Assembly (NCBI RefSeq): GCF_002854065.1
Contig: NZ_CP024147.1
Source: Escherichia coli
GTDB taxonomy: Bacteria > Pseudomonadota > Gammaproteobacteria > Enterobacterales > Enterobacteriaceae
Length of the DNA: 64,000 nt
Reading direction: 5' to 3' (one strand)
Shown: positions 40,810-44,458 of the stretch, in pieces
How positions within the stretch are numbered: position 1 is the first letter of the stretch
Layout of the letters: the number at the start of each line of letters is the position of its first letter
Position numbers and translations under genes: made by a program
The notes under the pieces: generated by a model
The model's input: only the letters and a program-made list of their open reading frames with translations
Told to the model about the DNA's origin: nothing
The model's database searches: none

Positions 40810-40873
40810 TGTGTCGTCCGTATTGCCGATTTAATATTGAGCATTGCGTAAAAAAAATATCACTGGATACATT

Positions 40874-42910
40874 ATGGTACCCTCAACATTTTCTCGTTTG
40901 AAAGCCGCGCGTTGTCTGCCTGTTGTTCTGGCAGCCCTGATTTTCGCCGGTTGTGGCACCCATACTCCCGATCAGTCCACTGCTTATATGCAGGGCACGG
41001 CGCAGGCTGATTCTGCCTTTTATCTTCAGCAGATGCAGCAAAGCTCTGATGATACCAGGATCAACTGGCAATTACTCGCCATTCGTGCACTGGTGAAAGA
41101 AGGTAAAACCGGGCAGGCGGTTGAGTTGTTTAACCAACTACCGCAAGAACTGAATGATTCTCAGCGTCGCGAGAAAACACTGCTGGCGGTAGAGATTAAA
41201 CTGGCGCAGAAAGATTTTGCTGGCGCGCAAAACTTGCTGGCGAAAATTACACCCGCCGATTTAGAACAAAACCAGCAAGCCCGTTACTGGCAGGCAAAAA
41301 TCGATGCCAGCCAGGGGCGTCCTTCCATTGATTTACTGCGCGCGTTAATTGCTCAGGAACCGCTGCTTGGCGCGAAAGAAAAACAGCAGAATATTGATGC
41401 CACCTGGCAGGCGCTCTCCTCCATGACTCAGGAGCAGGCGAATACGCTGGTGATCAACGCCGACGAAAATATTCTGCAAGGCTGGCTGGATCTGCAGCGC
41501 GTCTGGTTTGATAACCGTAACGATCCCGACATGATGAAAGCCGGGATCGCCGACTGGCAGAAACGTTATCCGAACAACCCGGGCGCGAAAATGCTGCCAA
41601 CGCAGTTGGTTAACGTAAAAGCGTTTAAACCAGCCTCGACCAACAAAATCGCCCTGCTGTTGCCACTGAATGGCCAGGCAGCGGTATTTGGTCGCACTAT
41701 TCAGCAAGGCTTTGAAGCGGCGAAAAATATCGGCACTCAGCCAGTGGCAGCTCAGGTAGCTGCCGCACCTGCCGCAGACGTAGCAGAACAACCTCAACCG
41801 CAAACCGTGGATGGCGTTGCCAGCCCGGCACAAGCCTCGGTTAGCGATCTGACCGGTGAACAGCCTGCAGCCCAGCCGGTGCCTGTAAGCGCCCCGGCGA
41901 CAAGCACCGCAGCGGTAAGCGCACCCGCAAATCCATCCGCAGAGCTGAAAATCTACGATACCTCATCACAACCACTTAGCCAGATCTTAAGCCAGGTTCA
42001 GCAGGATGGCGCGAGTATTGTGGTCGGTCCGTTGCTGAAAAATAACGTTGAAGAGTTGCTGAAGAGCAACACTCCGCTGAACGTACTGGCACTGAACCAG
42101 CCGGAGAATATCGAAAATCGCGTCAATATTTGTTACTTCGCGCTTTCACCGGAAGACGAAGCGCGCGATGCAGCGCGTCATATTCGTGACCAGGGTAAAC
42201 AAGCGCCGCTGGTGCTGATCCCACGCAGTTCATTGGGCGATCGCGTAGCCAATGCGTTTGCGCAAGAGTGGCAGAAACTGGGCGGCGGCACCGTTCTGCA
42301 ACAAAAATTTGGTTCCACCAGCGAATTACGCGCGGGTGTTAACGGCGGTTCTGGTATCGCTTTAACGGGTACCCCGATTACTCTCAGAGCGACAACCGAC
42401 TCCGGCATGACGACCAACAATCCAACGCTGCAAACCACGCCAACCGATGACCAGTTCACCAATAATGGCGGTCGTGTCGATGCGGTGTACATTGTGGCAA
42501 CGCCGGGTGAAATCGCTTTTATCAAACCGATGATCGCCATGCGTAACGGTAGCCAGAGCGGTGCAACGCTGTACGCCAGCTCCCGCAGTGCGCAAGGGAC
42601 CGCTGGCCCGGATTTCCGACTGGAGATGGAAGGCTTGCAGTACAGCGAAATCCCGATGCTGGCAGGCGGTAATCTGCCGTTAATGCAGCAGGCGCTCAGC
42701 GCGGTGAACAACGATTATTCGCTGGCTCGCATGTATGCGATGGGCGTTGATGCCTGGTCGTTGGCAAATCATTTCTCACAAATGCGCCAGGTTCAGGGTT
42801 TTGAAATCAACGGTAATACCGGAAGCCTGACGGCTAACCCGGATTGCGTGATTAACAGGAAGTTATCATGGCTACAGTACCAACAAGGTCAGGTAGTCCC
42901 CGCCAGTTAA
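40874..42910 (+). CDS. lpoA: Penicillin-binding protein 1A activator lipoprotein
   Basis: Track ORF from 40844; start set to ATG 40874 ([28 protein letters not shown], lipobox) giving 678 aa. Confidence 0.93.
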
Positions 42911-43263
42911 CCACCAAACAGACCGGCGATGCGTGGGAAGTACAAGCGCGTCGCTGGCTGGAAGGCAAAGGACTGCGATTTGTCGCCGCTAACGTGAACG
43001 AGCGTGGCGGCGAGATCGATCTGATAATGCGTGAAGGCCGGACCACCGTTTTTGTCGAGGTGCGTTACCGCCGTTCTGCGCTTTATGGCGGCGCGGCAGC
43101 CAGTGTGACCTGCAGCAAACAACACAAATTATTACAGACTGCCCGCTTGTGGCTCGCGCGTCATAATGGGAGTTTTGATACTGTGGATTGCCGGTTCGAT
43201 GTGGTAGCCTTCACCGGGAATGAGGTTGAGTGGATTAAGGATGCCTTTAATGACCACTCATAA
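42868..43263 (+). CDS. yraN: UPF0102 family protein
   Basis: 131-aa ORF overlapping the lpoA 3-prime end by 43 nt in another frame. Confidence 0.88.
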
Positions 43264-43282: not shown

Positions 43283-43873
43283 GTGCAAGAAAGAATTAAA
43301 GCTTGCTTCACTGAAAGCATTCAAACTCAAATTGCGGCGGCAGAGGCGCTTCCGGATGCCATCTCCCGTGCGGCCATGACGCTGGTTCAGTCTCTGCTCA
43401 ATGGCAACAAAATCCTCTGTTGTGGTAATGGAACTTCCGCTGCCAATGCACAGCATTTTGCTGCCAGCATGATCAACCGTTTCGAAACGGAGCGGCCCAG
43501 CTTACCTGCCATTGCACTAAATACTGATAATGTTGTCTTAACGGCGATTGCCAACGATCGCTTACATGATGAAGTGTATGCAAAACAGGTGCGGGCGCTG
43601 GGTCATGCGGGAGATGTATTGTTAGCCATTTCCACCCGTGGCAACAGCCGCGATATTGTAAAAGCGGTAGAAGCTGCCGTTACGCGTGATATGACCATTG
43701 TGGCATTAACCGGCTATGACGGCGGTGAACTTGCAGGTTTGTTAGGGCCACAGGATGTGGAAATCCGCATTCCTTCGCATCGTAGTGCTCGCATTCAGGA
43801 AATGCATATGCTGACGGTAAATTGCCTGTGCGATCTGATCGATAACACGCTTTTCCCTCACCAGGATGATTAA
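43283..43873 (+). CDS. diaA: DnaA initiator-associating protein (SIS domain)
   Basis: 196-aa ORF with GTG start ([16 protein letters not shown]...). Confidence 0.93.
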
Positions 43874-43882
43874 GGAGAATAC

Positions 43883-44458
43883 ATGAAGGCATTATCGCCA
43901 ATCGCAGTCCTTATTTCCGCGCTGCTGTTGCAAGGTTGTGTTGCCGCTGCCGTAGTGGGTACTGCTGCTGTGGGTACCAAAGCCGCAACTGACCCACGCA
44001 GTGTCGGCACCCAGGTGGACGATGGTACCCTGGAAGTGCGCGTGAACAGCGCATTGTCGAAAGACGAACAGATTAAGAAAGAAGCGCGTATTAATGTAAC
44101 GGCCTATCAGGGCAAAGTGCTGCTGGTTGGGCAGTCACCAAACGCTGAACTTTCGGCTCGCGCCAAACAGATTGCTATGGGCGTAGACGGTGCCAACGAA
44201 GTGTATAACGAGATTCGTCAGGGCCAGCCGATTGGTCTGGGCGAAGCGTCTAACGATACGTGGATCACCACCAAAGTGCGTTCGCAGCTCTTAACCAGCG
44301 ACCTGGTGAAATCGTCCAACGTGAAAGTGACCACCGAAAACGGTGAAGTGTTCCTGATGGGGCTGGTGACTGAACGTGAAGCGAAAGCGGCGGCAGATAT
44401 TGCCAGCCGGGTGAGCGGCGTGAAGCGAGTAACTACGGCGTTTACGTTTATTAAATAG
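43883..44458 (+). CDS. dolP: Outer membrane lipoprotein with BON domains
   Basis: 191-aa ORF with lipobox LLLQGC. Confidence 0.93.
   Translation: MKALSPIAVLISALLLQGCVAAAVVGTAAVGTKAATDPRSVGTQVDDGTLEVRVNSALSKDEQIKKEARINVTAYQGKVLLVGQSPNAELSARAKQIAMGVDGANEVYNEIRQGQPIGLGEASNDTWITTKVRSQLLTSDLVKSSNVKVTTENGEVFLMGLVTEREAKAAADIASRVSGVKRVTTAFTFIK

Follow-up and report, generated by a model that had tools for sequence, protein, structure and literature searches.

The lpoA and yraN genes lie side by side on the plus strand of the window, a 64,000-nt stretch of Escherichia coli DNA (contig NZ_CP024147.1), and the end of the first gene runs into the beginning of the second. The lpoA (yraM) coding sequence was placed at 40874..42910 (+) by the list of open reading frames, Pfam, and RefSeq, and it encodes 678 aa followed by a TAA stop. 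Its product is an outer-membrane lipoprotein that activates PBP1A, and it matched the Pfam family PF04348 (LppC) with an E-value of 2.1e-134 up to residue 672, where the profile ends. The yraN coding sequence (42868..43263, +) begins with ATG and encodes 131 aa plus a stop; the product is a UPF0102 protein, a PD-(D/E)XK nuclease. Further downstream are diaA (43283-43873, +), whose GTG start lies 19 nt past the yraN stop, and dolP (43883-44458, +), the last listed gene of the cluster. The rsmI gene occupies the minus strand, and lpoA-yraN-diaA-dolP form a cluster on the plus strand, which has been described (PMC7806268).

The overlap spans 42868..42910 (+) and comprises codons 666-678 and the stop of lpoA as well as codons 1-14 of yraN. 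The third codon position of lpoA serves as the first codon position of yraN and, as a result, the two genes are read out of frame with each other. The yraN start, ATG at 42868..42870 (+), takes its A from the wobble position of the lpoA Ser665 codon (TCA) and its TG from Trp666 (TGG). The lpoA stop TAA (42908-42910, +) lies 40 nt downstream of the yraN start. A sequence-only reading of this DNA had described a 43-nt out-of-frame overlap between the two genes, and that description is exact to the base. The same junction is annotated in RefSeq: in an E. coli genome that is 100% identical here, PGAP places lpoA at 1275-3311 and yraN at 3269-3664, which also share 43 nt. When a 701-nt query across the junction was used, 5424 of 5426 complete E. 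coli genomes carried the region at ≥95% identity. The overlap is therefore already annotated, and it is an ordinary member of an uncommon but documented class of overlaps rather than an annotation error.

A start codon and Shine-Dalgarno motif inside lpoA

An open second frame says little by itself about whether such an overlap is real, as a run of 14 stop-free codons has a chance of about (61/64)^14, or roughly 0.5. The overlap was judged real because of comparative evidence, and not because both frames are open. This evidence concerns two elements, the Shine-Dalgarno (SD) motif and the start codon of yraN, both of which are spelled by codons of lpoA. The SD region (42854..42862, +) reads AAC AGG AAG, which are the lpoA codons for Asn661-Arg662-Lys663, and its AGGA core (42857-42860) precedes the ATG by 7 nt. 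The duplex predicted with the anti-SD is moderate only (-4.6 kcal/mol). A TAA in the yraN frame at 42853..42855 (+) bars any start further upstream in E. coli, and the frame is open from 42856.

The codons that spell the SD and the start are unusual for lpoA. Arg662 is encoded by AGG in 27 of 30 loci, compared with 8 of 748 Arg codons (1.1%) elsewhere in the same lpoA genes. Likewise, Lys663 is AAG in 24 of 27 loci, compared with 27% elsewhere in these genes, and AAG accounts for only 2 of the 25 Lys codons of E. coli lpoA. Asn661 is AAC in all 28 of 28 loci (61% elsewhere in the same genes), and Ser665 is TCA in 19 of the 21 loci that have Ser at this position (11.5% of Ser codons elsewhere). 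Neighbouring synonymous sites of lpoA are well diverged, with a normalised third-position entropy of 0.67-0.70. Close relatedness by itself therefore does not account for the conservation of the SD and the start codon, even though the counts are phylogenetically non-independent.

Further evidence comes from the way the start codon itself changes. TGG at Trp666 is invariant in the 30 aligned loci (30/30), and in these loci the homologous start site reads ATG, GTG, or TTG, with the LpoA residues unchanged across the switches. The identity of the start depends on the wobble base of lpoA codon 665. An A gives ATG in most loci, a G gives GTG in Phytobacter massiliensis, and a T gives TTG in Cedecea, Serratia, Zophobihabitans, Acerihabitans, and two isolates labelled Enterobacter. 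The arrangement is not universal. A wobble C gives CTG at the homologous codon in Dickeya, Pectobacterium, Brenneria, and locus L024, and in the three named genera AGG is mostly lost. In Dickeya, CTG is the sole kind of start codon on offer at both -43 and -4. Among the six loci with CTG (Pectobacteriaceae together with L024), AGG is kept in only one, and the start and the SD appear to have been lost together. The codon preferences indicate that the SD and start codon of yraN are maintained by selection on synonymous codons of lpoA. This comparative support for the yraN start, that is, an SD made of a rare codon and a start built on Trp666, was worked out here from alignments, and no discussion of either feature was found in the literature searched.

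Could yraN start elsewhere? The sequence-only reading had suggested that the yraN start might be mis-called and that an internal ATG shortly downstream could be the true one. The ATG in question (42929..42931, +) sits within GGC GAT GCG, and its distance of 61 nt from 42868 puts it in a different frame from yraN, so that it is no candidate for a yraN start. The ATG at 42868 is the sole ATG, GTG, or TTG ahead of the conserved YraN core in E. coli. The codons that follow it are GCT ACA GTA CCA ACA AGG TCA GGT AGT CCC CGC CAG TTA ACC ACC AAA CAG ACC GGC. Direct reading of this stretch found no in-frame ATG, GTG, TTG, CTG, or ATT/ATC/ATA between 42871 and the codon for G20 (42925). The next in-frame Met of yraN is M54 (43027), which is located within the nuclease domain (PF02021), and a start at M54 would delete the first helix and the first beta-strands, through the conserved GEID motif. 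By this reading of the frame, ATG 42868 is the sole E. coli start able to yield a complete YraN.

The view that the overlap is an annotation artefact holds that E. coli YraN begins at or after the lpoA stop and has ~117 aa, as in Yersinia. This view draws on the finding that the first 13 residues are dispensable elsewhere, because Yersinia, Morganella, Photorhabdus, Xenorhabdus, and Providencia have starts without an overlap. Both 130-131-aa and 117-118-aa YraN models exist at NCBI for Serratia, Dickeya, Brenneria, and Pectobacterium, and in Serratia plymuthica a TTGA start is served by a stronger SD (-8.4 kcal/mol). However, codon 14 of E. coli yraN is TTA, and no start codon is in frame from 42871 to the core. 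A start at M54 would cost the protein the parts named above, and there is a clear signature of selection on the SD and the start at 42868. The yraN gene does resemble genes with over-extended, mis-annotated N-termini in that the residues overlapped by lpoA are poorly conserved and are missing in some orthologues, such as the 117-aa protein of Yersinia. It differs from them because it has no alternative downstream start, and because its upstream start and SD are conserved in position and carry a codon-usage signature. A mis-called start is thus very improbable for E. coli, and the suggestion of the earlier reading does not hold in the face of a conserved SD, a position kept across many genera, and a frame without a usable downstream start.

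Conservation of the junction and the YraN tail

The wider history of the junction was followed by a locus scan that used one genome per species and a 12-sequence YraN alignment, and yielded 80 loci. At each locus, LpoA and YraN were placed by tblastn, and in-frame canonical starts were listed from the upstream stop to the codon aligned with E. coli G20. The next gene upstream of yraN was lpoA in at least 73 of the 80 loci, and a 74th (Dickeya oryzae, L029) was recognized by eye. In 28 of the 80 loci, no canonical start before the core overlaps lpoA less than the one at the homologous site, which gives an overlap of exactly 43 nt; this count, like the other comparative counts, is phylogenetically non-independent. 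The group of 28 includes Escherichia (Escherichia albertii among them), Citrobacter, Enterobacter, Kosakonia, Pluralibacter, Kluyvera, Phytobacter, Pseudocitrobacter, and Superficieibacter. It also includes Cedecea, Mangrovibacter, Erwinia, Pantoea, Rosenbergiella, Budvicia, Zophobihabitans, and Acerihabitans. Conservation in related species had been named in the sequence-only reading as a check on the overlap, and this spread of genera bears the overlap out.

Other lineages have solved the junction differently. In Yersinia, Rahnella, Rouxiella, Morganella, Providencia, Xenorhabdus, and Photorhabdus, the two genes are separated by 30-360 nt and YraN is shorter. Aeromonas and Vibrio display other overlap lengths (14 to about 83 nt), and Xanthomonadales and other groups have either a short gap between the genes or an overlap of 1, 4, or 14 nt. 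Judged by these loci, the lpoA-yraN order is ancient and the geometry of the junction is plastic, and the 43-nt form is typical of Enterobacteriaceae, Erwiniaceae, and some of their neighbours.

What does the overlap encode in each frame? On the LpoA side, it encodes a conserved C-terminal segment, W666-x-x-Y-x-Q-G-x-x-V-P, in which W666 and G672 are present in 30/30 loci, Y669 in 27/30, and V675 in 28/30. This segment aligns residue for residue with the C-terminal end of the LpoA crystal chains from H. influenzae (3CKM and 5KCN). On the YraN side, it encodes residues that lie outside the conserved part of the protein. YraN matched PF02021 over residues 24-114 (E = 3.7e-24; 85.3 bits compared with a cut-off of 23.6). 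In all, 6693 YraN homologues were found. Homologues from a library of 1.8 billion representatives align from query residue ~12-20 onwards, and many of them are 115-125 aa long. The solved homologue PDB 3FOV aligns from YraN residue 14 (E = 2.5e-10). In a 40-sequence alignment, G20 is the first invariant column and the N-terminal columns differ in length and sequence, which places the beginning of the conserved core near residue 17-20. Residues 1-13 differ between genera, and the Yersinia protein (117 aa) starts at the equivalent of residue 14. The AlphaFold model of YraN has a mean pLDDT of 86.8, but residues 1-10 are at about 55 and lack secondary structure, with the first helix beginning at residue 12; the N-terminal tail is probably disordered.

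If the tail mattered to YraN, synonymous variation in lpoA would be expected to be suppressed across the whole overlap, because the third positions of lpoA codons 664-678 are the first positions of yraN codons. No such suppression was seen in codons 664-678, whose third-position entropy was 0.65 compared with 0.67-0.70 for the controls. The third positions of the overlap are as variable as the controls, which argues that the tail is unconstrained and that LpoA dictates this stretch. These comparisons indicate that YraN begins with ~13 passenger residues that are free of constraint and arise as a by-product of the position of its start within lpoA. The same kind of explanation covers the recurrent Leu at YraN position 14, whose codon joins a single base to the TA or TG with which the lpoA stop begins (NTA or NTG); as judged from this codon structure, the residue is a by-product as well. 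The overlap is best explained by geometry: just 15 nt separate the lpoA stop from the conserved YraN core, too few for a ribosome-binding site and start codon to fit in between.

One may also ask whether yraN is meaningfully translated in E. coli at all, or is a decaying gene whose overlap has no functional content. E. coli is not known to be naturally transformable like the species that have been studied for YraN. One E. coli strain has an 81-nt in-frame deletion of the yraN catalytic core. The role described so far for YraN is in natural transformation, where a preprint reports that YraN and the ComM helicase resolve the D-loop (bioRxiv 10.1101/2024.02.06.579203). These observations would fit a gene that is being lost. 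Against decay, the open reading frame is intact at ≥95% identity in 5424 of the 5426 genomes, and E. coli YraN has all family-invariant residues (G20, E24, E49, D51, E64, and R109-F110-D111), including the active-site acidic residues D51 and E64, which are invariant in the 40-sequence alignment. The ribosome-binding site of yraN is under selection, and phenotypes have been reported for yraN knockouts, with complementation from a plasmid. Hence there is very little chance that yraN is a decaying gene.

Mode of yraN initiation

Taken together, the evidence supports a genuine same-strand overlap in which yraN is translated from the AUG at 42868 by means of an SD inside lpoA, a reading to which we give a probability of roughly 70%. 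The AGG-AAG sequence of lpoA Arg662-Lys663 would form the SD and, through its 7-nt spacer, would drive initiation at this AUG. Selection would hold particular synonymous codons of lpoA at the SD and the start, and the other 40 nt of the overlap would be under LpoA constraint alone. Initiation probably occurs mainly de novo on the lpoA-yraN-diaA-dolP transcript. Elongating ribosomes on lpoA would transiently occlude the site and would probably hold YraN output low.

A scan of the junction for consensus motifs turned up neither promoter-like nor terminator-like sites. No Rfam RNA family matched the locus. Structure-mediated coupling between the two genes was considered and rejected: the region 42820-42940 folds no better than shuffled sequence (minimum free energy of -32.1 kcal/mol compared with a shuffle mean of -31.0; z = -0.31), and no stable structure that would hide the yraN ribosome-binding site was found in it. 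A full-text literature search for yraN and ribosome profiling returned nothing.

How do ribosomes reach the yraN start? An alternative to de novo initiation is that ribosomes ending lpoA at the TAA at 42908 move back ~40 nt and reinitiate at the AUG at 42868, in which case YraN synthesis would require lpoA translation and scale with it. Some features of the locus agree with this model. The two genes belong to one tightly packed same-strand cluster that lacks promoter-like and terminator-like sites at the junction, and the phase of the overlap is the same as that of -4/-1 overlaps. Reinitiation in E. coli is aided by SD motifs, which mattered in 4 of 5 tested pairs (PMC6728339). Because SD motifs also support reinitiation, conservation of the motif cannot separate reinitiation from de novo initiation. 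A precedent for a long backward movement comes from the coat/lysis pair of phage fr, whose 34-nt overlap prompted a bidirectional scanning model (Adhin and van Duin (1990), per PMC10666635). In addition, Serratia and L024 carry a TTGA (NTGA) option for a 4-nt overlap at codon 14.

However, reinitiation measured on native E. coli pairs is local. It works within a window of -8 to +6 nt, drops by 40-80% at +14 nt, and is nearly abolished at about 38 nt (+38 nt) (PMC10666635). The spacing between the stop and the start at lpoA-yraN is 40 nt, which lies outside this window, so that the two sites lack the proximity seen in coupled pairs. Moreover, overlaps of 10-60 nt are approximately four times rarer than the -4/-1/-8 class, and long overlaps in the phase of the 43-nt overlap (phase 2) are a depleted class because one mutation is enough to turn them into a -4 overlap (PMC10666635). 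For lpoA-yraN, this conversion would take a single TAA-to-TGA change, giving a 4-nt overlap at TTGA. The change is missing from E. coli and about 20 relatives, which argues against strong selection for tight coupling. The products also differ from those of typical coupled genes. Coupling is usually explained by products that assemble into one complex, but LpoA, a periplasmic lipoprotein, and YraN, a cytoplasmic nuclease, do not form one. Nothing suggests that the two proteins work together, and stoichiometric coupling would therefore have no obvious rationale.

Among known systems, the lpoA-yraN pair is like the -4/-1 coupled pairs (Huber et al. 2019, PMC6728339; Huber et al. 2023, PMC10666635) in that both genes are on the same strand, in the same phase, with an SD embedded in the upstream gene. 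It is unlike them in that the overlap is 43 nt long, the products are not subunits of a complex, and the overlap belongs to the depleted long phase-2 class. With the phage fr coat/lysis pair (Adhin and van Duin 1990, per PMC10666635), it shares an out-of-frame start that lies tens of nucleotides upstream of a stop. The difference is that the published model for phage fr relies on post-termination ribosomes, whereas the conserved SD of lpoA-yraN suggests independent initiation. Reinitiation after lpoA is accordingly considered unlikely as the main route to YraN. As far as the arrangement of the site can tell, de novo, SD-driven initiation at the embedded site, and not classical termination-reinitiation, is most likely.

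Consequences for yraN and lpoA mutants

Since the two genes share 43 nt, envelope phenotypes that have been ascribed to yraN mutants should be re-checked against lpoA. Removing or adding bases anywhere within the first 43 nt of yraN changes the conserved C-terminus of LpoA as well. The Keio design of Baba et al. 2006 reportedly keeps the start codon of the deleted gene, which is then followed by ATTCCGGGG. If the Keio deletion of yraN follows that design, the lpoA frame would read TCA TGA, and LpoA would end after Ser665 and lose W666-S678. The 2009 update of the Keio collection contains no mention of overlaps or of yraN, and the literature searched gave no account of the way the design dealt with overlapping genes. 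It is conceivable, but somewhat doubtful, that the standard yraN deletion alleles are hidden lpoA mutants.

One published screen could be read in this light. In a search of the Keio collection for synthetic lethality with Lpp+21 (a lengthened Lpp), lpoA, lpoB, mrcA, and mrcB were among the matches (PMC8824477). The sole cytoplasmic match was yraN, which the authors set aside as a technical artefact (PMC8824477). If the yraN deletion does truncate LpoA, the yraN match in this screen could be an lpoA effect.

The overlap also points to ways of turning off yraN that are silent for lpoA. The change A42868C would convert the yraN start from ATG to CTG and leave Ser665 intact (TCA to TCC), and a change of AGG662 to CGT would remove the SD. 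More generally, the case illustrates the use of codon usage in the host gene to distinguish genuine long overlaps from mis-called starts. The biological weight of the finding is small: it confirms the annotation of an overlap of an uncommon but well-documented kind.

Start codons of yraN in other genera

In the Serratia plymuthica locus L025, a TTG (3001) occupies the -43 site, which is the position homologous to the E. coli yraN start, and its SD is -4.0 kcal/mol. A second TTG (3040) forms a TTGA that gives a 4-nt overlap with lpoA, and its SD is -8.4 kcal/mol. Both the 130-aa and the 117-aa forms of Serratia YraN are present in public records. In another homologous locus, L024, a TTGA (2993) is the sole start. 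This pattern looks like a lineage in transition from one overlap length to the other, long or short.

Candidate start sites consisting of CTG were observed in loci L028, L029, L033, L035, and L036. In Dickeya, the only near-cognate starts in the yraN frame before the conserved core are a CTG at the -43 site and a CTG at the -4 site, where it forms the 4-nt overlap CTGA; in Dickeya undicola (L028) these codons lie at 3001-3003 and 3040-3042, respectively. Both CTGs recur in Pectobacterium and Brenneria, where there is also a TTG 67 nt into lpoA. For all three genera, NCBI records give both a 131-aa and a 118-aa YraN, each with Met written at a CTG. Because the YraN core is undamaged in these loci, either CUG initiation is in use or the gene is silent.

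Deletions of yraN and the ends of lpoA

The standard Keio scar consists of ATG followed by ATTCCGGGG. If the yraN deletion follows this standard design, lpoA would acquire an in-frame TGA directly after TCA (window 42866-42871), and LpoA would end after Ser665. In a search for Keio mutants lethal with a lengthened Lpp (Lpp+21), yraN was a hit alongside lpoA (PMC8824477). Truncation of LpoA by the yraN deletion might be the reason for this hit.

At the other end of the gene, the lpoA frame is open for 10 codons further upstream to a TTG (window 40844-40873), making an ORF of 688 aa; the RefSeq start is the ATG at 40874 (678 aa).

A deletion is also found in one complete genome, that of E. coli TUM9757, whose yraN has lost 81 nt in frame (equivalent to window 43005-43085). 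The deletion is bounded by two GGCGGCG repeats and takes out the catalytic core GEIDLIM...VFVEVRYR. What is left, 104 aa, still carries the annotation 'YraN family protein'.

Rfam features and a possible lpoA-yraN fusion

Rfam matches at the gathering threshold elsewhere in the window are RNase P RNA (19191-19567, minus strand), the SraG sRNA (58700-58871, plus strand), the S15 leader (59101-59215, minus strand), and naRNA4 (60728-60798, minus strand). These are ordinary in E. coli and have no relation to the lpoA/yraN overlap.

An NCBI E. coli protein of 160 aa (P0004) matches both the LppC and the UPF0102 Pfam families, to which LpoA and YraN belong, respectively. Its sequence is that expected from one extra C in the CCCC run at window 42898-42901, inside the overlap, an insertion that would put lpoA in frame with yraN. 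P0004 may be the result of a homopolymer sequencing error. It illustrates that one +1 frameshift within the overlap suffices to fuse lpoA and yraN.
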